NCBI GenBank assembly: GCA_965248835.1
Contig: CBDFLJ010000002.1
Location: forward strand, 1,728,001 to 1,792,000
DNA from: Alphaproteobacteria bacterium
GTDB lineage: Bacteria > Pseudomonadota > Alphaproteobacteria > MPNO01
DNA length: 64,000 bases
Direction: 5' to 3'
This document shows positions 1,814 through 20,753 of the stretch, one piece after another. The translations under genes were made by a program, and so were the position numbers. Below the pieces are notes generated by a model. The model made no database searches and had not been told where the DNA came from. It saw only the letters and a list, made by a program, of their open reading frames with translations. Position 1 is the stretch's first letter; each line of letters opens with the position of its first letter.

Positions 1814-2506
1814 ATGGAAAGCGATCCGATACGGGAAAAGATTAAGGACCTGCTCCGGCGCCGCGACCTCAACATGAGGGAGGCCTCGGTCCGGATGGGG
1901 AGGAACGTCACCTACCTCCACCAGTTCCTCACCCGCGGTCAGCCCAGGGTGCTGGGCTACAAGGACAGCGAGACCCTCGCCGAGCTGCTCGGCTGCGATG
2001 TCGACGAACTCCGCCACGACACCGTGCCCAGGCGAAAGCAATCAAAGAGAAAGCGCCGCCCGGCCCCGGCCGGGCTTCCCGGCGTGCCGCTCTCGAGCGT
2101 GCCCGAGATGGAGGTCGAGGCGTCGGCGGGACCGGGCGCGCTCGCCGACGAGTTCGTCATCGAGAAGGCGCGCTGGTTCCTGCCCGAGGGGATGATCCGT
2201 TACGAGGGCGATGCGAGCCCGGACGATCTCCGCATACTCAGGGTGCGGGGAAATTCGATGGAACCCGAGCTGCGCGAGGGCGACCGGCTCATGGTTGATA
2301 CCGCCCGGCGGATCCCGGCTACCGGGGAGATGTTCGTCCTATGGGACGGCACCGGCCTCGTCGTCAAGCGGGTCGAGCATGTGCGCGACGCCGCCCCGCC
2401 CCGTCTCCGGCTGAAATCCACGAATTCGGACTATGACGACTACACCTGCGATCCCGAGGAGGCCCACATCGTCGGTAAGGTGCTGTGGACCGTGAGACGT
2501 GTGTGA
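1814..2506 (+). CDS. CI/LexA-like repressor: N-terminal HTH plus S24 autopeptidase
   Basis: ASAGPG cleavage-type motif, VRGNSMEP (catalytic Ser), LVVKRV (catalytic Lys), IVGKVLW C-terminus. Confidence 0.9.
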   Translation: MESDPIREKIKDLLRRRDLNMREASVRMGRNVTYLHQFLTRGQPRVLGYKDSETLAELLGCDVDELRHDTVPRRKQSKRKRRPAPAGLPGVPLSSVPEMEVEASAGPGALADEFVIEKARWFLPEGMIRYEGDASPDDLRILRVRGNSMEPELREGDRLMVDTARRIPATGEMFVLWDGTGLVVKRVEHVRDAAPPRLRLKSTNSDYDDYTCDPEEAHIVGKVLWTVRRV

Positions 2507-2750
2507 GAGGCGGCGGAACTGACGGACCAGCGAGCTACCAAACAGAACCTCACACCCGTTCAACCGATGATCCGGCCAAAAGCGCTGCCGCTATCGTCTC
2601 TAGGCTCCCCCATCAGGTTTTGGATCGGTTCAGTCCGTTCCGAGCATCATCACCAGACGTCAAGGCTGGATAAAGCGGTCGCTATATTGCCAATTCTGTA
2701 GTATTTTTCACTTTACGTTCAGCAGACCCGACTGAGAGGCAAGGCGGTCG

Positions 2751-2963
2751 ATGGTTGACACCGACGTCATGACCGTGCGCGAGGTGGCTGAGTACCTGAA
2801 GGTCAAGGAGCGCACGATTTATCGATTGGTTGCCGGAGCAGGCATACCGGCATTCAAGGTGGGCGGTTCCTGGCGGTTCAGGAAGGGAGAAATCGACCAG
2901 TGGACCGAATCACACGCAATCGGGCCGGATGACGCGGTGGATAGGGCGGAGCGGTCGCAATGA
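2751..2963 (+). CDS. Excisionase-like HTH_17 DNA-binding protein, first gene of the defence operon
   Basis: MTVREVAEYLKVKERTIYRL...IPAFKVGGSWRF; ATGA overlap with the next gene. Confidence 0.9.
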   Translation: MVDTDVMTVREVAEYLKVKERTIYRLVAGAGIPAFKVGGSWRFRKGEIDQWTESHAIGPDDAVDRAERSQ

Positions 2964-5900
2964 CAGTCCCAACGATTTTCGAGGCATGCCGTCCACGGGA
3001 GGACGTCCTCAAAGGGGCGATCACCGAAGCCGACTTTGCCGCGGATCTGGCGCAGGTCATCGTCGGCAAGGGAAATGTCGAATATCTCGACCCGGTACGC
3101 TTCTTCGCCAACACCTATCCCACGAGGGGCCTCAAGAACCTGCTCGCCAACGTGTGCCGCCGTCTGACCGGCGCTGGCGGCGAAGTCGCGGCAATCTTCC
3201 GTCTCGATACGTCCTACGGTGGCGGCAAGACTCACGGGCTTATCGCGCTGACGCACGCCGCGCACGGTATGAAGGGTGTCGCGAATGTCGGGGAGTTCAT
3301 CGACCCTTCACTGCTACCCGATAGTCGTGTTCGCGTTGCGGCCTTCGATGGTGAAAACGCCGATCCTGCCAACGGCCGGGCCATGGGCGAGGGCGTTCTC
3401 GCTTACACGCCCTGGGGAGAAATCGCTTACGCGCTCGCCGGCAAGGATGGATATGAGCGGGTCCGCAAGAGCGATGAGAGCCGCATCGCGCCCGGCGCCG
3501 AGACCCTGCGCGAGCTGTTCGGCGGCGATCCGACGCTGATCCTGCTGGACGAGCTTTCCGTTTATCTGCGCAAGGTGCGCAACCTTGAGGACGCCCGCGA
3601 TCAGTTGACGGCGTTCCTGACCTCGTTGTTCAAGGCCGTCGAAAGCGCGCCTAATGCCGCCATGGTCTATACGCTGGCGATCGGCAAGGACGGCCGGGCA
3701 ACCGACGCCTATAACGAAGAAAACCAGTTTATCGCCGACAACATGGCGGAAGCGGAGAGCGTTTCCGCTCGCAAGGCAACGCTTTTGAACCCCACCGAGG
3801 AGGACGAAACGGTTCAGGTCCTCCGCCGTCGGCTGTTTGAATCCATTGACGAGACAAAAATTCCGGCGGTTGCCGATGCGTACCGGGCTCTGTGGGGGAC
3901 CAATAGAGAGTCCCTGGCCGACGATGCGGCCCGTTCCGAAACCGTCGAGGCATTCCGGTCGAGTTACCCGCTGCATCCGGAAGTCCTGGAAACCCTGACC
4001 GGCAAGACAGCGACGCTCGGCAATTTTCAGCGCGTACGCGGCATGCTGCGGTTGCTGGCGCGAACAATCTCGCATCTTTGGGAACAGAAGCCTGAGGACG
4101 CGACGGCAATTCACCTTCACCATATCGATCCGGGCTACGAGCAGATCCGCCAGGAGATCGTCACGCGCCTCGGGCAGACCGCTTACCTGCCGGCCATTAC
4201 TAACGACATCGCCGCCGGATCGGTCGAAAAGAAGGCATTAGCAGAAGAGATCGACGCCGAGCACCACGGCGGCATGGCCCCCTATGCCGTCTATGTCGCC
4301 CGAACCATCTTTATGCATACGCTCGCCTTCAATGACCCGCTCAAGGGGGTTTCGCCGGAACGGTTACGCTATTCACTCCTTGGCCCCGCGACGGACATCA
4401 GCTTCATCGAGGAAGCGCGCAAGAAGTTCATTGCCGAGTCCGCCTACCTCGACGACCGTCCCGGAGCGCCGATGCGCTTCCTCGCCGAAGCCAATCTTCG
4501 GCAAATCATTCGCCGCGAGGAACAGCATGTCGATGCCGGGCAAGCCCGCGCCGAGCTCAACGACCGCATCCGCCAGATATTCGGCGGCAGGACATTTGAC
4601 ACGGTCCCGTTTCCGGGAGGGCCGTTCGACGTTCCCGACGAGGTCGGCGACGGCCGCCCGAAGCTCGTCGTACTGGCCTATGACGGGGTCACCATCGGCG
4701 GCACCGTGGAGAGCGTCCCTGAACTCATCGAACGGATTTACTCGCGTAAGGGCTCCGAGGGTTCCGACCTGAGGGCCTTGCGCAACAATCTGGTGTTCGT
4801 GGTCGCCGACGAGGCCCGCCGGGAGGAAATGCGGCGCAAGAGCTATCAGCGTCTGGCTTTGCGGGAGCTCAAGAAGCCCGAGCGACTGCTCGATCTCGCC
4901 GACCACCAGCAGGCCCAGATACGTGAACTGGAGGCAAGATCAGAACAGGAACTCGCGATCGCCATCCAACAGTGCTACCGACATGTTTTCTACCCGTCTC
5001 GCAATCGAGTCGGCGAAAGTGTGGCCGACTTGGCCCACTCGGCAGTCGATGTCCATTCCACTTCCGATCAGCCTGGGGCGGGCCAACAGCAGATTGTGCG
5101 GGCGTTGCGCGATCTAAAAAAGTTGCGCCTGTCCGAGGACGAACCGGATTCTCCCTCCTATGTGCGGGATCGCACGCCCCTCAAGAAAGGCCAGATCACG
5201 ACGCTTGCGCTGCGCGACGAGTTTCGGCGCGATCCAGCACTGCCCATCCTGGTCGGCGACGACATTTTCATTCGCGGAGTCCGGCGCGGCATCGAGCAAA
5301 GCGAGTACGTGTATCAGCGCGGTGAGTTGATGTTCGGCCCCGGAGACCCGCCGGCCAGCATCATGATCGATGAGCAGTCCGTGGTCTTCACCATGGTCTG
5401 CGCGAAAAATCTCGCCGTCTGGCCCCGGCCGAAGCCGGGGGAGCCTGTACCGGACAAGGACAAAGGCAAACCGGCGGATGATCCGGGCGCGATACCCGGC
5501 GGCGGGTCTGGCGCCGACGCGGGAACCGAGCCCATTGGAGGGCATCCTGTTGGGGGAGCACCCGGATCTATTTCCGCCGAAGGCGTTCTCAAGGAAGCGC
5601 TGGTTCAGTTGTGGGAACAGGCCCGGGCCAAGGATGTCGAGAATGTCGGGATTTTGACTATCCGCATGTTCGAGGCTGGCGACGCCTTCCGTCTTCTGGG
5701 CGCCGTAGGCGCCGTATCTGGAGCGGAGAAGACCGTCACCATTACGGGCGGCTATGAGACCCGCGAGGGCGGCTCGTTCGAGCTGGAGTTTCGAGGACCG
5801 GTACCCGACGCCCAACCGGTAAAGGAGTTCCTTGAACCCCAACTGCGGGACGCAACTTCCAAGAATCTCCAGGCGGGTTTCGAGTTGACGTTTGCCGAAG

Positions 5901-6004
5901 GTCTTTCGATGCGCGGCGACGCAGCCGAGAAGTTCACCGAACGCCTTTCCAAGTTTGCGAGCGGGGCTGCGTACGTGTCGGCCACGGCGGAGGTAAAGGC
6001 GTAG
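2960..6004 (+). CDS. DUF499-family AAA+ ATPase (BrxC/PglY-related)
   Basis: EADFAADL, FFANTYPTRGL, Walker A TSYGGGKTH, Walker B LILLDE, SYPLHPE, FQRVRGMLRL. Confidence 0.9.
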   Translation: MTVPTIFEACRPREDVLKGAITEADFAADLAQVIVGKGNVEYLDPVRFFANTYPTRGLKNLLANVCRRLTGAGGEVAAIFRLDTSYGGGKTHGLIALTHAAHGMKGVANVGEFIDPSLLPDSRVRVAAFDGENADPANGRAMGEGVLAYTPWGEIAYALAGKDGYERVRKSDESRIAPGAETLRELFGGDPTLILLDELSVYLRKVRNLEDARDQLTAFLTSLFKAVESAPNAAMVYTLAIGKDGRATDAYNEENQFIADNMAEAESVSARKATLLNPTEEDETVQVLRRRLFESIDETKIPAVADAYRALWGTNRESLADDAARSETVEAFRSSYPLHPEVLETLTGKTATLGNFQRVRGMLRLLARTISHLWEQKPEDATAIHLHHIDPGYEQIRQEIVTRLGQTAYLPAITNDIAAGSVEKKALAEEIDAEHHGGMAPYAVYVARTIFMHTLAFNDPLKGVSPERLRYSLLGPATDISFIEEARKKFIAESAYLDDRPGAPMRFLAEANLRQIIRREEQHVDAGQARAELNDRIRQIFGGRTFDTVPFPGGPFDVPDEVGDGRPKLVVLAYDGVTIGGTVESVPELIERIYSRKGSEGSDLRALRNNLVFVVADEARREEMRRKSYQRLALRELKKPERLLDLADHQQAQIRELEARSEQELAIAIQQCYRHVFYPSRNRVGESVADLAHSAVDVHSTSDQPGAGQQQIVRALRDLKKLRLSEDEPDSPSYVRDRTPLKKGQITTLALRDEFRRDPALPILVGDDIFIRGVRRGIEQSEYVYQRGELMFGPGDPPASIMIDEQSVVFTMVCAKNLAVWPRPKPGEPVPDKDKGKPADDPGAIPGGGSGADAGTEPIGGHPVGGAPGSISAEGVLKEALVQLWEQARAKDVENVGILTIRMFEAGDAFRLLGAVGAVSGAEKTVTITGGYETREGGSFELEFRGPVPDAQPVKEFLEPQLRDATSKNLQAGFELTFAEGLSMRGDAAEKFTERLSKFASGAAYVSATAEVKA

Positions 6005-6484
6005 ATGGCTCGCCTGGAACGCATTTCCCTCGTCGATACACCGGGCTCGGCGCCCCAGTACGAACTCCGGGTGCGCAATCACGGCCCGGGGGATGCCGAG
6101 TACGAAATCTGGCAGATGCCTGCATCGGCGACACCGCAGGTGACTTCCGCGATACGCGTTGCCGGGCTTCGCGGCCGTAATTTCGATCTCGTCGAGCACC
6201 GGGTGCTCAAGCGTCTAGCACGGGCCGGAATTAAGCTCGGTTCTGGGACAGACAACAAGAAGCGCGGCTACACACTGACTGAGGACTTAGCGTTGATCTT
6301 GGGGTTGCTGTTCCGCAGCCTCGCCCCCATGCGCAATCGCGACAACATGCGTGCAGTCGCTGAAGGTATCGAGGCCATGGCGCGCGAGGAGGCCGCGTAC
6401 TGGTTAGGTATGGCCATACATAGAAAGAACCCGCGCCGAGTGTTGACGGCGCTCCGGTTTCTGCTGACGAATCCGAAACGATGA
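6005..6484 (+). CDS. Small accessory protein of the DUF499 system (DUF3780-like position)
   Basis: Starts directly after the DUF499 stop; C-terminal EAMAREEAAYWLGM...VLTALRFLL resembles the DUF3780-type EERWWL...ALR tail. Confidence 0.65.
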   Translation: MARLERISLVDTPGSAPQYELRVRNHGPGDAEYEIWQMPASATPQVTSAIRVAGLRGRNFDLVEHRVLKRLARAGIKLGSGTDNKKRGYTLTEDLALILGLLFRSLAPMRNRDNMRAVAEGIEAMAREEAAYWLGMAIHRKNPRRVLTALRFLLTNPKR

Positions 6485-7632
6485 TCGGGCAGGCGAACAT
6501 GCAAACGACACAGGGCAGGGAACCAATGGAAGATACGCAACCCGGCCAGTCGTTCGGGCACGAAGAGCCCGAGGGTCTGGATGATAAAGGCGAGTCGTTT
6601 GGTGATTACCCCATCGACGATCTCTTGATCCGCCATGACAGTCGAACGATTCATGACGTCATGCGTCGGATAGATCAGGGCAACTACATCATGGACCCTG
6701 ATTTTCAGCGCGATTTCATCTGGCCGGAAGACAAGCAAAGCAAGCTGATCGAATCGGTTATCATGCGTATTCCCCTGCCTGTGTTCTACATGGCGGAGGA
6801 CGGTGACGGAAGAATGGTGGTGGTAGACGGTTTGCAGCGCCTATCTACCTTTCACCGGTTTGTGAGCGATAAGTTGCGGCTGCGTCTACCGAATCGGACT
6901 GAACTCAACGGCAAACGATTCTCGGACCTGACGTCAAAACTCCAGAACCGCGTGGAGGACTGCAATCTAATCTTTTACAACATTGATTCGAAGGTGGGAG
7001 AACGTGCCCGTCTGGACATCTTCGAGAGGGTCAATAGCGGAGAGCCCCTCAGCAGGCAACAGATGCGCAACTGTCTGTTCATGGGAAGGGCGACCCGGTT
7101 CCTAAAGGAAGAAGCACAAACCGATATTTTCCTTAAGGCAACGGGCGCTAGCCTAAATAAAAAAACAATGCGGGATCGGGAGTTTGTCAATCGGTTTTGC
7201 GCTTTTCAGCTTCTCGATCTCGATGAGTATCATGGAGACATGGATGAGTTCCTTGCCAACTGCTTAACGAAAATGAACCAATCGGCGGAATCATATCTAT
7301 CGCAGTTGTCCGATAAATTTCACAGGGGCCTTGCAAATAACCTTTTGCTGTTCGATCAACATGCATTCAGAAAACATGAACCGGGACAGGAACGTCGCGT
7401 CGTTCTCAATGCATCCTTTTGGGATGTAATGTGCACCGGTTTGTCGCGTTACACCGAAGATCATGTAGAAGTATACGTGGAACCTCTTCGCCAAGCCATT
7501 TATAAACTGCTTGGAGACGAGAGTTTTAATACCGCTATTACTTACTCCACAAACAATACCAAAAGTGTTGGCCTTCGGTTTGAGATGAGCCTGCAAAAAT
7601 TCGAGGAGATTCTGGGTGCTCACACGGATTGA
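6481..7632 (+). CDS. DUF262 (ParB-like/GmrS-type) protein, Menshen NsnA-like
   Basis: PDFQRDFIW, SKLIES, RIPLP, VVDGLQRLST, IFERVNSG; start could be 6526. Confidence 0.9.
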   Translation: MIGQANMQTTQGREPMEDTQPGQSFGHEEPEGLDDKGESFGDYPIDDLLIRHDSRTIHDVMRRIDQGNYIMDPDFQRDFIWPEDKQSKLIESVIMRIPLPVFYMAEDGDGRMVVVDGLQRLSTFHRFVSDKLRLRLPNRTELNGKRFSDLTSKLQNRVEDCNLIFYNIDSKVGERARLDIFERVNSGEPLSRQQMRNCLFMGRATRFLKEEAQTDIFLKATGASLNKKTMRDREFVNRFCAFQLLDLDEYHGDMDEFLANCLTKMNQSAESYLSQLSDKFHRGLANNLLLFDQHAFRKHEPGQERRVVLNASFWDVMCTGLSRYTEDHVEVYVEPLRQAIYKLLGDESFNTAITYSTNNTKSVGLRFEMSLQKFEEILGAHTD

Positions 7633-8776
7633 TCTGCGGTATTTCAAATGTTTCAAAATGTTGAAGCTGCCATTGCGTCCGCTGACCCTGCTGTCCGGCG
7701 CCAATGCCTCCGGAAAATCGTCGGTGATGCAGGCCCTCGTTCTTCTGCATCAGACGATGCGCGCACATGAATGGTCGTCACGCCTGATGCTCAATGGCGC
7801 CGCTGTTCGACTCGGCACCGCGGCGGATGTGATCGACCAAGTTTACGGGCGCCGCAATTGCGAGATTGCGCTGCTGGACGACCCTGCGGCGCGGTTTCAA
7901 TGGGAATTTGAAGGGGACCGCAACGAGATGTCCATGGTGGTGCGAAGGGCTTGCGGGGAGACGGCCGACGGCGCCCGCTGGGACGCCAACGAATCGCAGT
8001 CGTTTCACCACTTGCTGCCGGCGCCACCAAGCGGCCATTCGTTGACCAACCGCCTATGCGGGCTCACCTACCTGACCGCCGAGAGACTGGGGCCGCGCGA
8101 GCACTACATGTTTGACGATCCGCAGCTAACGCCCGTTGTCGGCTCACGAGGGGAATACGCTGTCAGCATTCTTCACTCCGGCCGAGACGCCCCTGTGCTG
8201 GATCGCCTGGAGCTTCAGGGCACACCGCCCACTCGTTTTCGGCAAGTGGAAGAACGGATGCGCCACTTTTTTCCGGGTTGTGTGTTAGCGATTGAGCAGG
8301 TTCCGCGTGCGAACGCCGTAACGTTAGGAATTCGTATATCCAGCGGTATGGATTTTCAACGCCCTGTTCATACGGGTTTTGGGTTGACTCAGGTTCTCCC
8401 AATCGTCGTCGCGGCCTTATCCGCGAATAGCGATGACCTGCTGTTAGTCGAGAATCCCGAAGTGCATCTACATCCCACCGGACAGGCGGCGATTGGGGGA
8501 TTTCTGGCTGAAGTCGCATCGGCAGGCGTGCAGGTCATAATCGAGACACATAGTGACCATGTGTTGAATGGCATCAGGCGGGCCGTCAAAAACCGCACGC
8601 TGACCAGCGAACATGTCGCGTTACATTTTTTCCGGCCGCGCCGTGAAGACCAGACGGACTGCGGGCCACAAGTTCAGAGCCCGATCCTGGACGCCGACGG
8701 CAACATCGACAGTTGGCCGGATGGGTTTTTTGATCAGTTCGACAAGGACATGAATTATTTCGCGGGCTGGAATTGA
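7616..8776 (+). CDS. ABC/SMC-type ATPase with DUF3696-like C-terminus, Menshen NsnB-like
   Basis: Walker A GANASGKSS, signature GFGLTQVLP, ENPEVHLHP, IIETHSDH, DGNIDSWPDGFFDQ. Confidence 0.9.
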   Translation: MLTRIDLRYFKCFKMLKLPLRPLTLLSGANASGKSSVMQALVLLHQTMRAHEWSSRLMLNGAAVRLGTAADVIDQVYGRRNCEIALLDDPAARFQWEFEGDRNEMSMVVRRACGETADGARWDANESQSFHHLLPAPPSGHSLTNRLCGLTYLTAERLGPREHYMFDDPQLTPVVGSRGEYAVSILHSGRDAPVLDRLELQGTPPTRFRQVEERMRHFFPGCVLAIEQVPRANAVTLGIRISSGMDFQRPVHTGFGLTQVLPIVVAALSANSDDLLLVENPEVHLHPTGQAAIGGFLAEVASAGVQVIIETHSDHVLNGIRRAVKNRTLTSEHVALHFFRPRREDQTDCGPQVQSPILDADGNIDSWPDGFFDQFDKDMNYFAGWN

Positions 8777-8777
8777 T

Positions 8778-9740
8778 ATGGACCTCCTTGCCAATGACCT
8801 ATCGATCCACGAGCAATTTCACGACATAGAGTCGTTTCGCGACGCGCTTGCACGCTTGGTGTCCATGCGCAACACAGTTCGTCGCTTCGGTCGGGAGGTT
8901 TATTGCCATCATGCGCTCCTGAACGCCAGCCCGATTTCGGGTGTTCGGATGCAACAAGCAATTGGGCGCCTTGCTGACAAGAACGAGAAGCGAGCCGCGA
9001 TGGGGTGGCTGACGTCCGCCAGTTCGTCATGGGACGATCTACGCCAGCATGGCGCCGACGACTGGCTCGAATGCCGTGACGATATCGTCACGGATACCGC
9101 GATCGGCGAGGCCGCATTTCGAACGCTGCATAGCGTTGAATGTGGGCTGATTAGCGTCACACCTTCCAATTGGGATTTCTCGCCCGTCGAAGTGAATTGG
9201 AAGCGGGAATCGGAGGAATTGGACGACAAGACCGCAGCCCTCAAAAACTGGCGAAACGCAATTACGCTGGAAGAAGGGCTCCGCGATGCGACGGCGCCGA
9301 TTCAGACATGGGGCGATTTACGTGAAGCTTCGACGAACTGGTTTGAAAGCCTGACAATCTCTGGCAACTGTTTCGAACCGCTCGACGGAGTTCCGTTCGC
9401 ACGAAGCTCGGCGGATCGCATTCTCGTTTTGCTCGGCATTCTAAATAAATTGGCGCAAGCGTTCGATCCGGGCGGCGCGCGTACACCCGAAGGCCATCAA
9501 ATCTACCAAGACCACTTCACGGGCGATGGCGCATGGTTCTCAGACTCATCGAATGCCGAGAAGAATAACTTCCGCGAGGAATTGACATTTCCACATCCGA
9601 ACGATCCGGGAAAGGCGCTGTTTTGTACATGGCATGGCAAAGTGCGCCACATGACACTCCGCTTGCATTATTGCTGGTCCGGGACGGCGGGCGATCGGGT
9701 TCTCGTCGTGTATGCCGGTCCAAAGATCACGAAACAGTGA
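8778..9740 (+). CDS. Putative effector (Menshen NsnC position) with a possible RelE-like C-terminal domain
   Basis: Third gene of the DUF262-ATPase triad; C-terminal WHGKVRHMTLRLHY...VLVVYAGPKITK pattern. Confidence 0.6.
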   Translation: MDLLANDLSIHEQFHDIESFRDALARLVSMRNTVRRFGREVYCHHALLNASPISGVRMQQAIGRLADKNEKRAAMGWLTSASSSWDDLRQHGADDWLECRDDIVTDTAIGEAAFRTLHSVECGLISVTPSNWDFSPVEVNWKRESEELDDKTAALKNWRNAITLEEGLRDATAPIQTWGDLREASTNWFESLTISGNCFEPLDGVPFARSSADRILVLLGILNKLAQAFDPGGARTPEGHQIYQDHFTGDGAWFSDSSNAEKNNFREELTFPHPNDPGKALFCTWHGKVRHMTLRLHYCWSGTAGDRVLVVYAGPKITKQ

Positions 9741-9744
9741 GGCG

Positions 9745-12714
9745 ATGATGGAGGCCAAGGAACGACGTTCGACAGAGACCCGCTTAATCGAACGTTGGCT
9801 ACCGATTGCCGCGCTCGGCGAGGAAAGCGTCCGGGAGCGACGGTCGATGACCGCGTTGCCGCCGATCTACTATCTGCATGTCTGGTGGGCGCGGGCGCCG
9901 TTGGTGGCTTCCCGCGCCGCGATTCTGGCCTCCCTGCTACCGGAAGATTCGGATAGGGAGAAGTTTCTGCATGTGCTTGGCATCCACGGGGATCCCGCGG
10001 CTACCAGACGCAGGATTGATATCGCCAAAAGAAACAAGGAAAACCTTGGGCCAAACCCCTACGGCTACAAGCGGGCGTTTACGTATACGCCGACAGAAGA
10101 AGACAGGGACTGGGCCGAGCTTACTGTAGGGAGCGCGCTAAAGGGCCTATTCGTGCTCGACCCGACCGCGGGAGGGGGAAGTATTCCATTTGAAACCGGG
10201 CGCCTAGGGCTGACTTCGATCGCCAATGACCTGAATCCTGTCGCCGCTCTGCTTCTCCGGGCCACTGTCGATTGGCCCGCACGATACGGTTCTGCGCTGC
10301 TTGAACAGTTCGGCACATTGGCGCGCGAGTTTGTCTGTCGAGCCGAACCGAAATACGAACGTGTTTTCCCCGTGGAGTCCGAAGGTATCCGCATTGAAGG
10401 CTATCTCTGGGCTCGCACCATCACCTGTCCCTACTGCGACGGCCTTGTGCCCTTGTCACCGAACTGGCGTTTGGCACCCGACGGAACCGGTGTGCGGGTC
10501 CGACCTCACCTTGCCACCGGTCCAGGCTCAGATGGTCGGGTCTGTTCGTTCGAGATCGTCGACTCTGTCGCTGAACAATCACAAGGAACCGTTTCCGGAG
10601 GCGATGGAGTCTGTCCCTATTTAGATTGCGGCCGCGTCATAGACGGGGATGAAATCAAGCGGCAGGCCCAGGCTGGGAAGATGGGAGAGCAGTTGCTCGC
10701 AATCGTCTACAAAAGGCGTGTCGAGAAAATCCTAAAGTCGGGAAAACGCGGAAAGGACAAATGGGTACGCGGCTACCGCGCGCCGCGACCAGAGGACGAT
10801 AACAGTGTCGAGATAAGAGCGAAGCTCGACGAGAAGCTGCCCGAGTGGGAAGCCTTGGATTTTGTTCCGAGCGAGAAGTTTCCAGAAATCAGTAACGACG
10901 ACCGACCAATCCAGTATGGCATGCCCCTGTGGCGCGACCTGTTTTCTCCGCGTCAGCTTCTGTGCCACGGAACGAGTGTCGAAATATTTCGAGAAATGCT
11001 CGACGCGGATCGTGCTGACGGAAGTCTCGATGAAGTCCGGCGAGCGGCATACGTGTATTTGGCTCTGACGCTCGATACCTTGCTGAACTACAACAATCGA
11101 GCTGGACGCTGGGACAATACCACCGGTAGGGTACGTTCTATTTTCGACCGACACGACTTTGCGTTCGTGTGGTCCTACGCTGAGATGGCACCCCTTGTCG
11201 CAGGCGTGGGATACGACTGGGCTATCGATAAGACCGCAAAGTGCATCAAAGAACTCGTTACCTTGGTTCGCCCCGACGTGGACCTGAACGCCGCCGATTT
11301 GTTCAGTCGTGACGGTGCAGAAGAATACACCTCACCGCCGATCACCATCACCGCCAAGCCCGGTGACAGTCTCGATCATATTGAGGACGCATCCGTAGAC
11401 GTAGTCGTCATAGACCCACCCTATTACGACAACGTCATGTATGCCGAGCTCTCAGATTTCTTCTACGTATGGCTCAAACGCACGGCCGGCCACGTTGTCC
11501 CCGAGCTATTCCGCCGCCAGCTAACCGACAAGGACAACGAGGCCGTCGCCAGTCCAGCCAAATTTCAAGGACAGAAAGGCGCCAAGGCGCTCGCAGGAAG
11601 AGACTACCAGGAACGCATGGCATCGATTTTCGCCGAGTGCAGCCGGACACTCAAACCGAATGGCATCATGACTCTGATGTTCACGCACAAGGCGAGCGGC
11701 GCCTGGGATGCGTTGACCAAGGGATTGATCGAAGCAGGTTTCGTCATCACCGCATCATGGCCTATCAATACCGCGGCCGAGGGAAGTCTTCATATCAAGG
11801 ACAAGGCGGCCGCCAAGACCACCATCTTTCTGGTTTGTCGACCCCGCGTGGACGACACGCAGGCGGAGTCGCAACTCTATTGGGAAGACGTAGAACCCTT
11901 GGTCGCCAAAGCGGTGCGAACGCGGGTCAAGGAGTACCAGGACGCAGGCATTTCGGGCGTTGACCTCTACCTCGCCTCTTTTGGACCGGCGCTTGAAGAG
12001 TTCTCGCGCCACTGGCCTCTCAAGCGAGGCACGCCGCGCGAGATTCCCGTGGAACGCCGCCGCCGGCGACAACAGGCCTTGTTCGAAGAGGAATGGGATC
12101 CTTATGCCGCAACACCGGAAGATGCCCTTGACGCGGCCCGCCGTGAGGTCAAGCGATGGCGTCTGGAACAGTTGACCCATCTAAAGGCGGATGCCGATCT
12201 CGATCCCGCAACAGCGTTTGTCGTCTTGGCGTGGGATGCCTTCAAGGCACCTGTGTTCTCTTATGACGAAGCGCTGAGGCTCGCCCGTGCGGTCGGCGTC
12301 GATCTCGACAGCGACATCATCGGCCGGTTGGCCGAGAAGAAAGGCAGTGACATCCAACTATGGGACAGCGCACGCCGGGCCGCCAAGGGAACACTCGGAC
12401 CTGTCGATGGCTCTCGAGGAATGATCGACGCGATCCATCACGCCGCCAACATGGCCCGCGTACGTTCCTTCGCCGCCGCGCAGGATGTTCTTGCAAAGGC
12501 ACTGGTTGATCAGGATCCGCATTTCTACGCGGCGCTTGAAGCCGTCCTTGAAGTTCTTCCGGTTTCAAAAACCTTCACAGGGATCGAACTCAAGGGCGAA
12601 GTTGCGGCCTCGGCGAGTGACTTCGAGGCGCTGTATAAACTCACCCGCCTCGCTTACAGCGACAAAATCGACGAGCCTGAACAGCTCAAACTTTGGCAAG
12701 ACGATGACGTCTGA
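9745..12714 (+). CDS. DUF1156-type N6-adenine DNA methyltransferase
   Basis: LHVWWARAPL, motif I VLDPTAGGGSIPFE, zinc ribbon CPYC/CPYLDC, motif IV IDPPYYD. Confidence 0.92.
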   Translation: MMEAKERRSTETRLIERWLPIAALGEESVRERRSMTALPPIYYLHVWWARAPLVASRAAILASLLPEDSDREKFLHVLGIHGDPAATRRRIDIAKRNKENLGPNPYGYKRAFTYTPTEEDRDWAELTVGSALKGLFVLDPTAGGGSIPFETGRLGLTSIANDLNPVAALLLRATVDWPARYGSALLEQFGTLAREFVCRAEPKYERVFPVESEGIRIEGYLWARTITCPYCDGLVPLSPNWRLAPDGTGVRVRPHLATGPGSDGRVCSFEIVDSVAEQSQGTVSGGDGVCPYLDCGRVIDGDEIKRQAQAGKMGEQLLAIVYKRRVEKILKSGKRGKDKWVRGYRAPRPEDDNSVEIRAKLDEKLPEWEALDFVPSEKFPEISNDDRPIQYGMPLWRDLFSPRQLLCHGTSVEIFREMLDADRADGSLDEVRRAAYVYLALTLDTLLNYNNRAGRWDNTTGRVRSIFDRHDFAFVWSYAEMAPLVAGVGYDWAIDKTAKCIKELVTLVRPDVDLNAADLFSRDGAEEYTSPPITITAKPGDSLDHIEDASVDVVVIDPPYYDNVMYAELSDFFYVWLKRTAGHVVPELFRRQLTDKDNEAVASPAKFQGQKGAKALAGRDYQERMASIFAECSRTLKPNGIMTLMFTHKASGAWDALTKGLIEAGFVITASWPINTAAEGSLHIKDKAAAKTTIFLVCRPRVDDTQAESQLYWEDVEPLVAKAVRTRVKEYQDAGISGVDLYLASFGPALEEFSRHWPLKRGTPREIPVERRRRRQQALFEEEWDPYAATPEDALDAARREVKRWRLEQLTHLKADADLDPATAFVVLAWDAFKAPVFSYDEALRLARAVGVDLDSDIIGRLAEKKGSDIQLWDSARRAAKGTLGPVDGSRGMIDAIHHAANMARVRSFAAAQDVLAKALVDQDPHFYAALEAVLEVLPVSKTFTGIELKGEVAASASDFEALYKLTRLAYSDKIDEPEQLKLWQDDDV

Positions 12715-12716
12715 CC

Positions 12717-15700
12717 ATGCTCAGCGATCACACATGGAAGCTCAAATACACCCCTGATGACGGCAATCTCGTCAAGCTGTTCTACATCCCAGCGCTTGAG
12801 GATGCCGAGCGTTATGATCGACTGACCGGGTACTTTAGCGCTCGCGCCCTGACACTGGCGGCACGCGGCATCGAAGGACTGGTCCGAAACGGCGGCCACA
12901 TGCGGCTCGTCGTCGGCTGTACCCTGGAACCGCCCGAGATCGAGGCGATCGCTCAAGGCGAGAATCTTCGCGGTCTCGTAGAGCAACATTTGGTGAGCGT
13001 GCCGCTCGCTCCACCAGATTCGGACTCTTCCGACGCTCTAGAACTGCTGGCCTGGATGATTGCGCGCGGTCATCTGGAAGTGAAGGTGGCCGTTCCTTGC
13101 GATGCCAACAAGAAGCCGGTTCCGGCAGACGGCATTTTTCATGAGAAAGCCGGCATTATCGAGGACCGGGGCGGTGACAAGATCGCCTGGAACGGCAGCC
13201 TCAACGAGACGGCGGCCGGCTGGCAGCACAACTGGGAGAGTATCAACGTCTACACGAGCTGGGGTACGGAGCCCCAACGGGCCTCGGACGAAGAGGCCAA
13301 TTTCGCACGCATCTGGGCCAACAAGGCACATCGCGTAATCGTGCTCGACGTACCTGATGCCGTACATCAGGACCTGATGCGTTTCATGCCCGAAACGGAT
13401 AAGCCTGCCCGCCTCAAAGAGCCGGAAGAAGCGCCCGAAAAGCCTCCCCCGAACATGGCAGCAGACGGAGAGAACAAACCCGAAGAACAATCCGCACTCC
13501 TGACTACCGATCTGAGGAGCCGTGTCTGGTCTTTCATTCAACACGCGCCTTGCTTGCCAAACGGGGGCGAGCGCGTTGGCGAGATTACCTCGGCGGTCAC
13601 ACCCTGGCCCCACCAAGTGAGGGCTTTTGAACGTCTCTATACCGATTGGCCCCCCAAGCTTCTTATCGCCGACGAAGTCGGCCTCGGCAAAACCATCCAG
13701 GCAGGACTGCTCTTGCGTCAGGCTTGGCTGGCCGGGCGCATCAAGCGGGTCCTGATCCTGGCGCCTAAAGCCGTTCTCCAACAGTGGCAGATCGAGTTAC
13801 GCGAAAAGTTCAACTTGAACTGGCCTATCTACGACGGCCAGAAGCTGATCTGGTATCCCTCGCCCGCGTGGCGTGGGCAAAACGAACGGATTGTCGACCG
13901 CCATAACTGGCATGACGAACCTGTGGTGATCGCGTCCAGTCACCTGATGCGGCGCCACGACCGCTCGGCCGCACTATTGGAGGAAGCCGAACCCTGGGAT
14001 CTGGTGGTGCTTGACGAAGCCCACCATGCCCGGAGACGCGCCGCGGGAAGCCAACAGGAAGGTGGGCCGAACGCCCTGCTGCGCCTGATGCAAGGGCTGA
14101 AGGACCGGACTCGGGGACTGGTGTTGCTCACCGCGACGCCCATGCAGGTCCACCCCATTGAGGTCTGGGACTTGCTGGACCTGCTCGGCCTGCCGCCCGA
14201 GTGGACCGCCGACGCGTTTCTCAAGTTCTTTGACGATATTGAGCAACCAAGCCCGTCATCGGATGCGCTGGACCGCATGGCCCAACTCTTTCAGTCGGTT
14301 GAACGCGAGTACGGCGAAGTCCAGACAGAGGACGCGCAACGTCTGGTCGAGCTGTCTCGTATGAAGGCCAACAAAGTACTCCGCGCGCTGCGCGATAATG
14401 CCAGCATTCCGCGGCGTCAATTGGAGACGGCAGAGCGCCGCGCCGCGATCAACATCATGCGGGCGCATACGCCGATTCGCCGCCTGGTATCGCGGCACAC
14501 TCGCGAACTGCTGCGACGGTATTTCAAGGCTGGAATGATGACCACACCCATCACCGATCGTCAGGTCGAGGATCGCTTTATCGAAATGACGTCGGAAGAA
14601 CGAGCGCTCTATGACGCGGTCGAGGATTACATTGCCAGCACCTATAACCAAGCCAGCGCCAAGGAGCGCACGGCGGTGGGTTTTGTCATGACAATCTACC
14701 GTCGCCGCCTCGCCAGCAGCTTTCTGGCCTTGCGCAACACGCTGCAAAACCATCTCAACGCCATTGCCACCGGCGGCCAGGCGCAATTAACGGGTCTGGA
14801 CGAGGACGCGCCGGACGATGAAGCGACGGACGAGATTCTGGATGCCGATGATGTGGCGGCTCTCGAGCGCGACGCTCTCGCCGCCGAAGAGGAGTCAGAC
14901 ATCCAGAGCCTTCTTGTCCGCATTGCCCAGTTGCCGCCGGATAGCAAACTCGAAAGCCTCAAGCACACCCTTCAAGAGCTACGCGGCGACGGATACGGCC
15001 AAGCGATGGTCTTCACCCAATACACCGACACCATGGACTTTCTGCGTGGAGATCTCCTGAAGCACGCGGATCTGACGCTGATGTGTTTCTCGGGGCGAGG
15101 GGGAGAAGTCCCGGCCGCGGACGGCACCTGGCGCCGGATCAGCCGCGACGATGCTAAACGGCGGTTCCGAGATGGCGAAGCCGATGTCCTGCTATGCACA
15201 GACGCGGCAGCTGAAGGGCTAAACTTTCAGTTCTGCGGCGCCCTGATCAATTACGACATGCCGTGGAACCCCATGCGGGTAGAACAACGCATCGGACGCA
15301 TCGACCGTCTCGGCCAGGAGCACGGCATCATCCGGATCGTCAACTTGCACTACGAGGGGACGGTCGAAACCGACGTCTATCGAGCGCTCAGGACACGCAT
15401 CGGCTTGTTCGAGTCTGTCGTTGGCCGACTGCAACCGATCCTGGCCCAATTACCCCAAACGATCTCGCAGAGCATTCTCTTGGGCAAGGACGCCGATATC
15501 CGCGATCGCGCGAACATTATGGATACCATCGAGCAGCAAGCCCGCGAAGCAGAGGGGCGCGGGTTCGATATCGACGCGGTGACGGAAGACGACCTCACCA
15601 TGCCATCGCGCCCGCCATCGCCCATAACCATGGATGATCTGGACAGGATCATTGGGTCATCGGACCTGATGCCGCCGGGAACTGACATCCAGCACATGGC

Positions 15701-15896
15701 GCATCGGGAATACGGATTGCTGGCTCCTGGCATGACTGAGAGCCTTCGCGTGACCACCGACCCGGCGTTTTTCGAGGAGCATGCTGAAAGCCTGGAGCTT
15801 TGGTCGCCGGGCAATGTGCTGTTTCAGGCCCCGGAGCTGATAACGCCAGATGATGCCCCCCAAGCGAGATCGCTCAATGAGGTGTTGGAGGATTGA
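12717..15896 (+). CDS. PLD-nuclease / SNF2 helicase fusion
   Basis: HEKAGIIED...GSLNET (HKD PLD motif); LIADEVGLGKT, LDEAHH, LLTATP, AEGLNFQ, PWNPMRVEQRIGRIDR. Confidence 0.92.
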   Translation: MLSDHTWKLKYTPDDGNLVKLFYIPALEDAERYDRLTGYFSARALTLAARGIEGLVRNGGHMRLVVGCTLEPPEIEAIAQGENLRGLVEQHLVSVPLAPPDSDSSDALELLAWMIARGHLEVKVAVPCDANKKPVPADGIFHEKAGIIEDRGGDKIAWNGSLNETAAGWQHNWESINVYTSWGTEPQRASDEEANFARIWANKAHRVIVLDVPDAVHQDLMRFMPETDKPARLKEPEEAPEKPPPNMAADGENKPEEQSALLTTDLRSRVWSFIQHAPCLPNGGERVGEITSAVTPWPHQVRAFERLYTDWPPKLLIADEVGLGKTIQAGLLLRQAWLAGRIKRVLILAPKAVLQQWQIELREKFNLNWPIYDGQKLIWYPSPAWRGQNERIVDRHNWHDEPVVIASSHLMRRHDRSAALLEEAEPWDLVVLDEAHHARRRAAGSQQEGGPNALLRLMQGLKDRTRGLVLLTATPMQVHPIEVWDLLDLLGLPPEWTADAFLKFFDDIEQPSPSSDALDRMAQLFQSVEREYGEVQTEDAQRLVELSRMKANKVLRALRDNASIPRRQLETAERRAAINIMRAHTPIRRLVSRHTRELLRRYFKAGMMTTPITDRQVEDRFIEMTSEERALYDAVEDYIASTYNQASAKERTAVGFVMTIYRRRLASSFLALRNTLQNHLNAIATGGQAQLTGLDEDAPDDEATDEILDADDVAALERDALAAEEESDIQSLLVRIAQLPPDSKLESLKHTLQELRGDGYGQAMVFTQYTDTMDFLRGDLLKHADLTLMCFSGRGGEVPAADGTWRRISRDDAKRRFRDGEADVLLCTDAAAEGLNFQFCGALINYDMPWNPMRVEQRIGRIDRLGQEHGIIRIVNLHYEGTVETDVYRALRTRIGLFESVVGRLQPILAQLPQTISQSILLGKDADIRDRANIMDTIEQQAREAEGRGFDIDAVTEDDLTMPSRPPSPITMDDLDRIIGSSDLMPPGTDIQHMAHREYGLLAPGMTESLRVTTDPAFFEEHAESLELWSPGNVLFQAPELITPDDAPQARSLNEVLED

Positions 15897-16505
15897 TGCC
15901 GATCAGAATTTGCCCACACGAATACGAGGAAGAATTGGGCGCCTGATTAGATAGTCGCCGCCATACCGTAAGCATTCGGCCAAGCCGTGACTGCCCGGAT
16001 AGGGGGAGGTAGCGAACGACCAGTGTGGCAGTAAACCGTTCGGCTCGACACTCGGACCTCAGCGCCGATCGGATCACGATTGACGCCGATCTCAACGATG
16101 TGATGACCAACATCAGAATGCTGCCGCGTACTGGAAATGCCTGACGATCCTGTACGCGCGGACGATGGCGAAGCCACGGGGCTGGTCCGGCCAGATACGG
16201 ACAGAACACCGGACTGCCGCTTCTCCGGCGCCGGCTATCCCGGCTCGACCGAACGGATACGACGAGCGAGGGCTCGCAATGGCCGAGACCAACATTCGCT
16301 CACAACCCCGAACTGATCCGTGGTGCCTCGTGTGCGTATCGGTCGCGAAGCTCCCTTCGGTCAAAATACCGGGACCGCTGGGACCGCGCTTGAATTCGCC
16401 GGCTCGGCCATGATGAGCGGGCCCCGCCTCAGCACCGCGGACCGTCCGCCCGGCCGCGCCACTACCGGCCCGACGACAGCGCCACCGCATCATCGGCCGA
16501 AGCGC

Positions 16506-17003
16506 TTAGCGCGCATGTTTCAACGCACTGTCCCAATGCTCGACGATCTTGCCGCCTTCGATGCGAAACATATCGAACCAAGTGGTCGTGTATGTCTTGG
16601 AGGCGTCGCTGGGGTCCGGATACCGCACCACGTGCGCCATCGTCACGAGATCGCGTTCGGCAGTGATCGAGACGATTTCGGCCTTGATCTTGGGTGCCAC
16701 CGGCAGGGGATCCATGCTGCCGAAATAGCCCACGAAGGCGGCGCGACCGGTCGGCACGTTGGGATTGTGCTGAACGTAATCCTCGACCATGTATTTCCCG
16801 GCTTGGTCGACTCGGTGCGCGTCCAGGACGATGCGCCAAAAGTCGAAGACGAGGCGCTTGTTCGCCGCAAGCGCCGGATCATCGCTCCGCAACATCGCTT
16901 GCTGGCTGGCACCGGCGGTCACCTCGACCTGGGCAAACGCCGGCGCAGACAACATGAGTAACGCGCACAACATGGCCAGGGAGAGCAGACTGGATATCCT
17001 CAT
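16506..17003 (-). CDS. Exported SnoaL/NTF2-fold protein
   Basis: Signal peptide; YVQHNPNV, WFDMFRIEGGKIVEHWD; AGGAGG RBS. Confidence 0.85.
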   Translation of the reverse strand: MRISSLLSLAMLCALLMLSAPAFAQVEVTAGASQQAMLRSDDPALAANKRLVFDFWRIVLDAHRVDQAGKYMVEDYVQHNPNVPTGRAAFVGYFGSMDPLPVAPKIKAEIVSITAERDLVTMAHVVRYPDPSDASKTYTTTWFDMFRIEGGKIVEHWDSALKHAR

Positions 17004-17410
17004 AGTGTGTTCCTCCTTTGTTTCGTCTTGGGCCGGATCGCAGAAAGACGGGCCTCGTGATTCCGAGTTTGCCCCAGCGTCGTCTCCAAGGCCATGCGAT
17101 TCAGGACCGCGTTCCCAATGGAGCCGTGCAAGGCGTCAATCTTCGAAGGGGAAACAAGCCGGAAACGACCGGATCCTACAATAGCCCATCTCCGGAACCG
17201 CCTGATGCGATGGCCCTGCGGTCAATAGCCAGTTGGGTTGAACGATCACGCGGGTCGGGTTAGGCTTTTCCGATGTCAAAGCGCACGATCACACGCCGGA
17301 TCGCCCTGGTTTCCGCCGCCGCGGGCGTCGTGGCACTGCCGTTCGTGTATTTCAGTCGCTCGAGCACTTTGGGCTACCCGTTTTCAGGCCCGGCCGCCGA
17401 TCGCGCCCTA

Positions 17411-18593: not shown

Positions 18594-18595
18594 TA

Positions 18596-19432: not shown

Positions 19433-20036
19433 TAGGGCTCGCCCCGCCGCTCGCATGCACGCGGGGCACGCGTAGCAAGACCGAGGGACCGTACTACACG
19501 CCGCAGACGCCACAGAGGGCCGACTTGCGAGAACCGGATGCGCGCGGTCAGCCGCTCGTCCTGCACGGATTAGTGCTTACCCCGGGCTGCCGCCCGGTCG
19601 CGGGCGCCGTGATCGACATCTGGCACAGCGACGGGGATGGCCGCTACGACAACTCGGGCTTTCGTTACCGCGGCCATCAATTCACCGACGCCGCGGGCGC
19701 GTTTCGTTTCGAGACCATCCGGCCCGCTCGCTACCCCGGGCGTACGCCGCATATCCACGTCAAGGTCCAAGGTGCGTCCACGCGCCTTCTCACCAGCCAG
19801 CTCTTCTTTCCCGACCTGCCGGACGAGAACGCCCGAGACGGAATCTTTCACGACGACCTCCTGCTCAACCTGAGCCGCGGCCCGGCGGGCTGGCTCGGGC
19901 GCTTCGACTTCGTGCTCTCGCCGGCCTGATACCGGGAACCCGAACCACTCCTCGAGCACGCATCTACAATCCCGCCACGACAACCACGGGCGAATTGACG
20001 TTGACGCACCAGATGCGGTGTCGGCCGCATCGAAAA

Positions 20037-20558: not shown

Positions 20559-20714
20559 GATGCCTCCATTTCCGATGCAGCGCTTAACGAGAGCCGGGCA
20601 ACATATACGTCGCCCTTTGTGCGCGATTCGTCTTGAAGCTTGCGACGGCCGCGGTCGGCGTCCTTCAGGTTTGTTACATTCCTCGAACGCGGGTCAAGTC
20701 GGTAGAACGCTTGA

Positions 20715-20748: not shown

Positions 20749-20753
20749 CCGCT

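Follow-up and report, generated by a model that had tools for sequence, protein, structure and literature searches.

When one defense system lies inside the operon of another, does the inner system depend on its host, does it guard it, or do the two merely travel together? This question is raised by a locus at positions 2751 to 15896 of a 64,000-nucleotide stretch of an alphaproteobacterial genome (GenBank assembly GCA_965248835.1, contig CBDFLJ010000002.1, positions 1,728,001 to 1,792,000 of the forward strand), which we refer to as the window. In this locus, the three genes of a Menshen system (NsnA, NsnB and NsnC) lie within a restriction-like operon of five genes that resembles the system known as MANTIS, between a small gene of the DUF7680 family and a methylase gene. 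We favor the view, to which we give a probability of about 70%, that the locus holds two autonomous anti-phage systems packed in one operon, with Menshen occupying an exchangeable cargo slot. An earlier annotation made from the letters of the window alone (the sequence-only reading) had proposed a single, undescribed composite system. The genes of the operon, with their Pfam and PADLOC matches (E-values in brackets), are as follows.

2751..2963, plus strand: HTH_17 protein, 70 amino acids (Pfam HTH_17, 1.9e-17; PADLOC mad1, 3.3e-7)
2960..6004, plus strand: DUF499 AAA+ ATPase, 1014 amino acids, MtsA/HmaC-like (Pfam DUF499, 2.1e-39; PADLOC HmaC, 2e-98, and DUF499, 2.4e-41)
6005..6484, plus strand: DUF7680 protein, 159 amino acids (Pfam DUF7680, 1e-44)
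6481..7632, plus strand: NsnA, 383 amino acids, ParB/DUF262 (GmrSD_N) protein (PADLOC NsnA, 4.8e-110; Pfam GmrSD_N, 3.2e-23)
7616..8776, plus strand: NsnB, 386 amino acids, ABC-type ATPase with a DUF3696 C-terminus (PADLOC NsnB, 1.5e-101; Pfam AAA_15, AAA_21 and DUF3696, the last at 9.2e-15)
8778..9740, plus strand: NsnC, 320 amino acids, putative effector (PADLOC NsnC, model PDLC03896, 2.4e-106, full length)
9745..12714 (open from 9712), plus strand: DUF1156 N6-adenine methyltransferase, MtsC/HmaB-like (Pfam DUF1156, 1.4e-13; PADLOC HmaB, 2.4e-72, and DUF1156_MTase, 2.9e-42)
12717..15896, plus strand: PLD(HKD)-SNF2 helicase-nuclease, 1059 amino acids, MtsD-like (SNF2-rel_dom, 3.7e-23; Helicase_C, 1.6e-19; PLDc_2, 2.9e-6; PADLOC BrxHI, 5.2e-77, and PLD_Helicase, 1.3e-74)

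The eight genes overlap or are spaced by only a few bases. ATGA overlaps join the HTH_17 gene to the DUF499 gene (2960-2963) and the DUF7680 gene to NsnA (6481-6484), and the TAG stop of the DUF499 gene at 6004 is followed immediately by the ATG of DUF7680 at 6005. NsnB starts with GTG and overlaps the end of NsnA by 17 nt (7616-7632). The remaining junctions have short spacers: 1 nt between the NsnB stop (8776) and the NsnC start (8778), 4 nt between the NsnC stop (9740) and the methylase ATG (9745), and 2 nt between the methylase stop (12714) and the helicase start (12717). When the open reading frames (ORFs) and junctions were re-read in the sequence, the description of eight co-oriented, tightly abutting and intact genes given by the sequence-only reading was borne out, as was its choice of 9745 as the methylase start. 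The alternative start at 9712, which would overlap NsnC by 29 nt, was rejected because the conserved N-terminus (T-D/E-T-R-L-I-E-R-W...) favors 9745; the ATG at 9745 is the likelier start, since the N-terminus matches those of two related loci (L001 and L002) only from there. The right-hand junction of the Menshen cassette is alike in the window and in L002.

Each of the eight proteins aligns over its full length with relatives (tblastn against related loci) and, with the expected motifs also present, all eight genes look intact. The motifs are a Walker A-like GGGKT (residues 86-91) and a Walker B LILLDE (at 193) in the DUF499 protein, DGLQR at residue 116 of NsnA, a Walker A GANASGKS at residue 28 of NsnB, DPPY at residue 568 of the methylase (counted from 9712), and HEK..D..GSLN, GLGKT and DEAH at residues 142, 322 and 433 of the helicase. 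N6_N4_Mtase matched the methylase at 4.2e-4, under the Pfam cut-off, and PLDc_2 matched the helicase with 27.6 bits against a cut-off of 27. The best PDB sequence match of the helicase is RapA (3e-39). Judging by gene spacing alone, the operon, including the inner genes, is probably co-transcribed. A scan of positions 2000-16600 for sigma-70 promoters gave 1 site versus 4.8 expected from shuffled sequence, with a consensus that may not suit this organism, and a scan of the same region for intrinsic terminators gave 15 sites versus 14.2 expected.

The outer genes are best understood by comparison with MANTIS, the new name of Gao_RL (10.64898/2026.09.23.753747), which has also been called Gao_29. 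MANTIS is reported to consist of MtsA, a DUF499 AAA+ ATPase; MtsB, a small protein specific to type-2 BREX-related (BR; BREX, bacteriophage exclusion) loci; MtsC, an N6-methylase; MtsD, a helicase-nuclease with PLD and superfamily 2 (SF2) helicase parts; and MtsR, an optional repressor. In the same report, MtsA and MtsB load and activate MtsC, which leads to hemimethylation of asymmetric 6-bp sites, and restriction requires all four proteins. A survey in Nucleic Acids Research (NAR 2026, PMC12839542) treats MANTIS-type loci as type-2 DUF499-centered BREX-related systems, places "Hma" in the same broad family, and gives DUF3780 as present in 98% of type-2 BR taxa. The window operon has the same gene order as MANTIS: regulator, DUF499 ATPase, small protein, DUF1156 N6-methylase with DPPY, and PLD/HKD-SF2 helicase. 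Both are read as methylation-based, restriction-like systems, the one in the window from its gene content and motifs only. The restriction-like outer operon of DUF499 ATPase, methylase and PLD helicase that the sequence-only reading had named is one on which Pfam, PADLOC and motifs agree, and its HTH_17 protein, which is in the position of MtsR, is a candidate operon regulator.

There are differences. The regulator is HTH_17, whereas that of MANTIS is Arc/CopG; the small gene and the methylase gene are separated by three additional genes; and the small protein is a DUF7680 protein in which no similarity to DUF3780/MtsB could be detected. Both the ATPase and the methylase score better on the PADLOC models of Hma than on those of Gao_RL. 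However, the helicase of canonical Hma is of the DUF3883/REase type and there is no small gene, whereas the slot in the window is bounded by DUF7680 and the methylase. An assignment to canonical Hma was rejected, because the helicase has a PLD N-terminal domain and a small gene is present, as in type-2 BR/MANTIS. Based on gene content, we classify the outer five genes as a MANTIS-like (Gao_RL, type-2 DUF499 BREX-related, Hma-related) system and a non-strict member of that group, since the small gene has no detectable link to DUF3780.

The sequence-only reading was mistaken about the identity of the small gene. It had called the gene DUF3780-like, but the protein is a member of DUF7680 and has no DUF3780 match at E-values up to 10. 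None of 23 diverse DUF7680 proteins matched DUF3780 at E-values up to 1, and hhalign of the two families gave a probability of 0.2-0.3; the DUF3780 side of that comparison held two sequences (L180 and L181), so that distant homology is still possible. A stretch resembling EE..(Y/W)WL(F)GMA can be seen by eye in the consensus sequences of both families, and we do not count it as evidence. The AlphaFold2 (AF2) model of DUF7680 had a predicted local distance difference test score (pLDDT) of 50.9, too low for comparison with the published DUF3780/MtsB fold. Sequence searches of the PDB returned no match for the DUF499 protein and none for DUF7680, for which the best row was a ribosomal protein with an E-value of 0.37. 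From these comparisons, DUF7680 appears to be a positional analog of MtsB only. The family itself is large: there are 2704 homologs at E-values up to 1e-3 (the best 120 all at least 77% identical), which fall into 515 clusters at 50% identity. It is also unusually conserved across phyla, with 68-92% identity in the 80 loci described below. The name DUF7680 is absent from the literature searched, and a DUF7680-type relative of MANTIS thus seems to be widespread and apparently undescribed by name in that literature.

By the PADLOC scores of all three proteins, NsnA, NsnB and NsnC constitute a complete Menshen system, as the sequence-only reading had recognized. No Pfam family matched NsnC. An alignment of 22 NsnC sequences has invariant residues in the C-terminal part, in the region of H286-G-K288, R295 and H297. 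An AF2 model of NsnC built from this alignment had a pLDDT of 89.3, and Foldseek found no match to it in the PDB at E-values up to 1e-3. Exhaustive comparison with VIA-align paired residues 1-172 with PIN folds (2mdt, Z 5.4; 2dok, 5.3; 1o4w, 5.1) and residues from about 190 to 320 with RelE, ParE, YafQ and YoeB toxins (Z 5.5-6.0; 6x0a and 4q2u at 6.0, 3bpq and 7v6w at 5.9). The model therefore suggests an N-terminal PIN-like domain and a C-terminal RelE/ParE/YoeB-like (BECR) domain, with middling fold scores that are consistent with the published architecture of NsnC, an inactive PIN domain followed by a BECR-type RNase domain (Li et al., NAR 2025, PMC12065111). Li et al. propose that NsnA is a sensor, NsnB a transducer and NsnC the effector. 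We see no structural difference between their Menshen and that in the window, which has a ParB-DUF262 NsnA, an ABC/DUF3696 NsnB and a PIN-like plus BECR NsnC in the order A-B-C. The contexts that they list are BREX, restriction-modification (RM) of types I and III, and methylase pairs; their text does not name embedding in a MANTIS-like operon.

To see what occupies the slot between DUF7680 and the methylase gene in other genomes, we used an alignment of 20 DUF7680 homologs to scan a single genome of every GTDB species. At least 586 stretches matched, of which at least 302 encode a relative; the top 80 of these were retained with 10-kb flanks. These 80 loci span Acidobacteriota, several proteobacterial classes, Binatia, Latescibacterota, Longimicrobiales and other groups. 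Slots were annotated by tblastn with the eight window proteins and by PADLOC on the 143 slot ORFs of L002-L041; the labels were moved by blastp to all 343 slot ORFs, and Pfam was run on 18 representative cargo ORFs. Three of the 80 loci are uninformative (contig end), leaving 77. The contents of their slots, in categories that overlap, are as follows.

Full NsnABC triad: 12 of 77 loci
Partial Menshen: 8 of 77
Septu gene: 20 of 77
STAND-type AAA_16+TPR NTPase: 12 of 77
Unnamed X1-X2-X3 cassette: 10 of 77
TIR+SLOG pair: 3 of 77
PDC-M38/AbiL-like: 3 of 77
GHKL ATPase pair: 2 of 77
Empty slot (gap of at most 200 nt): 8 of 77
Short gap without a gene: 3 of 77
Other or unknown cargo: 13 of 77

The nesting seen in the window therefore recurs in homologous loci. 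Full triads are present in L002, L004, L005, L021, L022, L025, L037, L044, L052, L055, L063 and L077. All 12 are on the operon strand (tblastn), and in 10 of them the distance from DUF7680 to the start of NsnA is about 125 nt or less. Of the partial systems, that of L007 is cut by the contig end and those of L011, L012, L013, L029, L039, L058 and L061 are truncated. In two other loci Menshen adjoins the operon without being inside it, after the helicase in L031 and upstream in L051. The window itself is a case of embedding in the sense of Payne et al. (10.1101/2024.01.29.577857): NsnABC are flanked by DUF7680 and the methylase, every one of these genes is on the plus strand, and the junctions overlap or are at most 4 nt long. 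The association is also facultative, as homologous outer systems carry other cargo or none, both in the 77-locus census and on the DUF499 tree described below. Matches to the HTH_17 protein were found at the equivalent position in 9 of the 80 loci (tblastn).

The other cargo of the slot is varied. The unnamed three-gene cassette X1-X2-X3 (about 230, 200-240 and 360 amino acids) is present in L008 (10705-13200) and also in L003, L009, L017, L029, L038, L045, L054, L056 and L060. X1 and X2 match no Pfam or PADLOC family, and X3 has weak matches to Lactamase_B (4.9e-6 and 1e-7) and to LmuA/RTasMBL. By guilt by embedding, the cassette is a candidate for an unnamed defense system. Pairs of TIR_2 and SLOG proteins are found in L017 (10640-12651), L052 (13808-15816) and L058 (10707-11879), and pairs of HATPase_c_3 (GHKL/MORC-like) ATPases in L016 (10580-14091) and L048 (10578-14095). 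Large AAA_16+TPR STAND NTPases, often preceded by an AAA ATPase of about 430-530 amino acids, are present in L026, L033, L036, L041, L042, L044, L046, L049, L061, L062 and L064, and giant HTH_3 proteins of 1360-1400 amino acids in L035, L033 and L074. L019 and L020 are near-identical DUF499-DUF7680-PtuA copies near the two ends of one chromosome record; their DUF499 branch lengths of 0.0012 and 0 could reflect a recent duplication or an assembly artifact at the chromosome ends.

If Menshen were a fixed part of the outer system, its presence should follow the history of the outer genes. A DUF499 FastTree was made from 71 rows, comprising the window and the 70 loci with an ORF of at least 90% of full length (10 loci, L006, L029, L030, L060 and L067 among them, were left out). 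On this tree the 14 rows with Menshen need 12 changes, at least 8 of them forced by starred branches. The mean for shuffled labels was 12.1 changes, and 293 of 500 shuffles were as low. The presence of Menshen shows no clustering on the DUF499 tree. Pairs of near-identical outer systems illustrate the point: L055, with Menshen, and L050, with other cargo, have DUF499 branches of only 0.014 and 0.02, and L025 versus L009 and L007 versus L056 likewise have near-identical DUF499 genes and differing cargo. The nearest DUF499 relative of the window, L001 (89% identity), has an empty slot.

Pairwise divergence among the 13 embedded loci gives a similar picture. DUF499 diverges together with DUF7680 (Spearman 0.53, permutation p 0.007) and not with NsnA (0.18, p 0.20) or NsnB (0.00, p 0.49); the value for NsnC is borderline (0.34, p 0.056). 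Genes that adjoin across the cassette borders are correlated, DUF7680 with NsnA (0.44, p 0.016) and the methylase with NsnC (0.56, p 0.029, n=6). Menshen does not diverge in step with the outer genes, and the pattern is that expected of a mosaic apparently shaped by recombination.

Some loci contain duplicated pieces of the flanking genes, which mark the borders between stacked cargo. There are 3' relics of DUF7680 at the borders of cassettes in L003 (10519-10701), L004 (19159-19311), L029 (14312-14443) and L058 (13796-13922), and also in L008. Pieces of the 5' end of the methylase gene lie in or after the cargo in L042 (12514-12651) and L077 (13784-14006), and also in L016, L028 and L059. These pieces look like footprints of recombination between operons with differing cargo, and they fit the exchange and stacking of cassettes. 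In L077 (10476-14006) an intact triad is followed only by short 5' methylase fragments, with no helicase match within 6 kb, and Menshen seems to have outlived its host operon there.

The composition of the inner genes also points to a history of their own. The GC content is 0.495 for NsnA, 0.560 for NsnC, 0.581 for the methylase, 0.582 for NsnB, 0.596 for the HTH_17 gene, 0.603 for the helicase, 0.610 for DUF7680 and 0.620 for DUF499, compared to 0.634 for the window overall and 0.70-0.75 in its first 1.5 kb. The sequence-only reading had described all three inner genes as richer in AT. This is clearly so for NsnA but marginal for NsnB and NsnC, and NsnB is level with the methylase. In each of the 12 other embedded-triad loci, too, no gene has a lower GC content than NsnA, whatever the GC content of the host, so low GC is a trait of the cassette and not a local accident. 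The proposal that the inner module has a separate history is supported by this lower GC and by the empty slot in the closest relative of the outer system, L001.

Menshen is also found outside MANTIS-like operons. A relative of NsnC (30-46% identity) was found in 9 of 400 further genomes from the phylum of the window, and no relative was found when viral contigs were scanned with NsnC. Of 8 NsnABC loci of that phylum, with flanks of up to 10 kb, several of which end at contig ends, none had a match to DUF499, to DUF7680 or to the DUF1156-type methylase; one of the loci, L093, has weak helicase matches. When metagenomes were scanned with the alignment of NsnC, 311 relatives came up, and the top 80 were retained. 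Only one of these 80, L105, is flanked by DUF7680 upstream and by the methylase downstream; it is a near-identical counterpart of L055. In 44 of the 80 the sequence extends for 700 nt or more upstream of NsnA, and DUF7680 is there in L105 only. In L134 (3317-6186) and L136 (70-2939), distant relatives of the DUF1156-type methylase and the helicase (23-25% identity) lie upstream of a Menshen with 45% NsnC identity, which may be embedded in or adjoin another BREX-related subtype.

On a FastTree of concatenated NsnA, NsnB and NsnC (36 rows), the 14 embedded copies fall in a group of 19 rows together with the adjacent copy of L051 and with L101, L102, L107 and L109 (support 92, not starred). The other 17 copies, none of them from MANTIS-like operons, fall outside this group. 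The label "embedded" needs 6 changes on this tree versus a shuffled mean of 11.3, and none of 500 shuffles was as low. L101, L102, L107 and L109 have no MANTIS-like genes in their flanks. In L101 Menshen adjoins a Y-family polymerase gene; in L102 it lies in a defense island with AAA_21+RloB and KAP NTPase; in L107 it is upstream of AbiE and BrxA/BrxB; and in L109 a Cas3-like helicase and an N6_N4 methylase lie upstream of it. Because these four outsiders are nested among embedded copies and have other defense contexts, we conclude that one sublineage of Menshen circulates among MANTIS-like operons and also moves elsewhere. The slot thus behaves as an exchangeable cargo site and not as part of a fixed composite, since Menshen is unclustered on the DUF499 tree and has close relatives outside such operons. 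For the same two reasons, and because near-identical outer systems have an empty slot or unrelated cargo, an obligate dependence between Menshen and the outer system appears unlikely.

In the reading that we favor, neither the outer system nor Menshen would need the other. By analogy with the MANTIS of P. aeruginosa, the outer ATPase and small protein would load and activate the methylase so that host DNA is marked, and DNA that lacks the mark would be attacked by the helicase-nuclease. NsnA would sense, NsnB would transduce, and NsnC, as a PIN-like plus RelE-like RNase, would act as the effector; according to the published bioinformatic proposal, Menshen probably cleaves nucleic acid, likely RNA, which would lead to growth arrest. 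Related operons would exchange cassettes by recombination in the conserved genes on either side, and embedding would give co-transfer and probably co-transcription, thereby adding a second, mechanistically distinct layer of defense. Several points weigh against this picture. Menshen or its remnants are present in 20 of 77 slots versus an NsnC relative in 9 of 400 same-phylum genomes, a comparison across different sampling frames; some functional preference is possible, since this frequency is far above that of a random filler. The Mantel-type tests used 13 loci, and only 6 for the methylase; the trees are FastTree only, and the 19-row group is not among the starred ones. Co-transcription is a reading of gene spacing, the fold matches of NsnC are middling (Z at most 6.0), and the MANTIS mechanism is an extrapolation to an operon whose small gene is DUF7680 and not MtsB. 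A rival reading, put forward by the sequence-only reading with PrrC in type I RM and GmrSD in BREX as analogies, is that Menshen has a guard or backup function, which is already the usual hypothesis for embedded systems (Payne et al., 10.1101/2024.01.29.577857; NAR 2026, PMC12839542). Menshen would then stay silent for as long as the outer system works, and it would cause abortive infection once the outer ATPase, methylase or helicase is blocked by an anti-restriction protein or DNA mimic of a phage. The recurrence of the same sublineage in one slot (12 full and 8 partial systems), the clustering of embedded copies on the Menshen tree, and the co-orientation and tight coupling of the triads to the operon fit this role, and the predicted RNase-toxin-like fold of NsnC would suit abortive infection. 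However, there is no direct sign that Menshen senses the outer system. The slot is as readily filled by Septu, STAND NTPases, TIR-SLOG or other cargo, or is empty; the presence of Menshen does not cluster on the DUF499 tree; its close relatives L101, L102, L107 and L109 have no MANTIS-like genes nearby; and DUF7680 was upstream in only 1 of the 44 metagenome loci (from the best 80 of 311) with at least 700 nt there. We regard a guard function as plausible, if unlikely.

A different kind of dependence would exist if NsnA reads the methylation made by the outer methylase for discrimination between self and non-self, an idea that Li et al. (PMC12065111) raise for methylase-linked Menshen systems. 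Menshen is the immediate upstream neighbor of the methylase, and the divergence of NsnC and the methylase is correlated (r 0.56, n=6), although linkage that is limited by recombination would by itself yield a correlation between adjacent genes. [quoted passage not shown] In contrast, L101 and L102 have no methylase in the available flank, L077 has an intact Menshen followed only by 5' methylase fragments, and a DUF1156-type methylase was found in none of the 8 same-phylum NsnABC loci, several of which end at contig ends and in which other methylase types were not searched. A shared self-mark is in our opinion very unlikely. The low GC of NsnA and the empty slot of L001 could also be explained if a mobile Menshen cassette had inserted into this operon once, by chance, with no wider pattern. 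This is refuted by the census, which found the arrangement in 12 further loci from several phyla and remnants in 8 more, and the likeness of the right-hand junction in the window and L002 also speaks against it; we give it next to no weight. Elements of these ideas can be joined, such that the Menshen sublineage with NsnC of the PDLC03896 type (a RelE-like effector) would be the preferred second layer of the DUF7680-type system, spread by recombination in the DUF7680 and methylase flanks and wired to its host, either triggered by anti-restriction factors or reading the methyl mark; the outer system would then be an undescribed variant of MANTIS in which the unrelated DUF7680 has the role of MtsB. 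We consider this joint account improbable. The reading as two autonomous systems, with Menshen in an exchangeable slot, remains the one that we prefer.

Arrangements of this kind have precedents. PrrC within type I RM is a second, mechanistically different module inside a methylation-based operon, as is Menshen in the window. The same is true of BREX with BrxU (GmrSD) or PARIS, as cited by Payne et al. In the BrxU, PARIS and PrrC cases complementary or triggered action is supported by experiment, whereas the pairing in the window is known from genes and its cargo is interchangeable. Embedding in Hma is similar to that described here: according to Payne et al. (10.1101/2024.01.29.577857), 62.7% of 1,485 Hma systems have embedded genes, about 22.8% of the embedded genes are from known systems, and 96.7% are co-oriented; there, too, a known defense system on the same strand lies between the core genes of a system of helicase, methylase and DUF499 ATPase. 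The occupants overlap as well, Septu being common, as are ABC-ATPase and GmrSD-like cargo, and the backup hypothesis is stated there; the text names Septu, with other systems as occasional, and Menshen may be listed in a figure. "Auxiliary and backup" effectors and nucleases embedded in DUF499-centered BREX-related loci are likewise described in the NAR 2026 survey (PMC12839542). The claim of an undescribed composite system made by the sequence-only reading is therefore not sustained: embedding in Hma, BREX and RM, backup effectors, and links of Menshen to BREX, RM and methylases have all been published. No text in the literature searched names Menshen inside Gao_RL/MANTIS, although that search did not cover figures and supplements, which may well list it. 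With the architecture, the embedding phenomenon and the guard hypothesis already in print, the find is incremental.

The locus is nonetheless a clean and tightly packed example, with every gene intact, of a defense system embedded in a BREX-related restriction operon, and it comes with natural controls, namely near-identical outer operons with an empty slot, Septu or other cargo. Such natural pairs with and without an embedded system make it testable whether embedded systems merely travel with the host operon or guard it. The slot between DUF7680 and the methylase is also a rich source of candidate defense cargo, including the unnamed three-gene cassette. These by-products (the DUF7680-type variant, the cargo-rich slot and the pairs with and without cargo) may outweigh the headline finding.

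The sequence-only reading placed the operon in a decaying island. This was only partly borne out: insertion sequence (IS) transposase ORFs and fragments of an integrase and a dioxygenase lie downstream. The features around the operon are as follows.

1-840 (cut by the window edge), upstream of the operon: DUF7146/Toprim_3 primase-like ORF
Within 1-2506, upstream of the operon: DUF4326 ORF
1772-2506, upstream of the operon: S24 (LexA/UmuD-like) peptidase ORF
Downstream of the operon: SnoaL-like gene
17422-18540, minus strand, and 22015-23019, plus strand: IS630-type transposase ORFs
18606-19217 and 21563-22300, both minus strand: IS5/IS4-type transposase ORFs
19525-19929: dioxygenase fragment, 134 amino acids
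20754-21302, minus strand: truncated tyrosine integrase (Phage_integrase), 182 amino acids
24986-25804, minus strand, and 30498-31445, plus strand: IS3-type transposase ORFs
26699-29664, minus strand: tripartite ATP-independent periplasmic (TRAP) transporter DctPQM, apparently intact, between IS copies

The window contains no tRNA, and thus no attachment site was identified. The assembly (2 contigs, 100% complete, 9.51% contamination) may be a metagenome-assembled genome, which calls for caution about the host of the island. The region from 16500 to 31500 is rich in IS elements, and the surroundings fit a mobile island with decayed parts. On the other side of the operon, the upstream region (1-2506) looks like the part of an integrative element devoted to replication and regulation, and the defense operon may be carried by that element.

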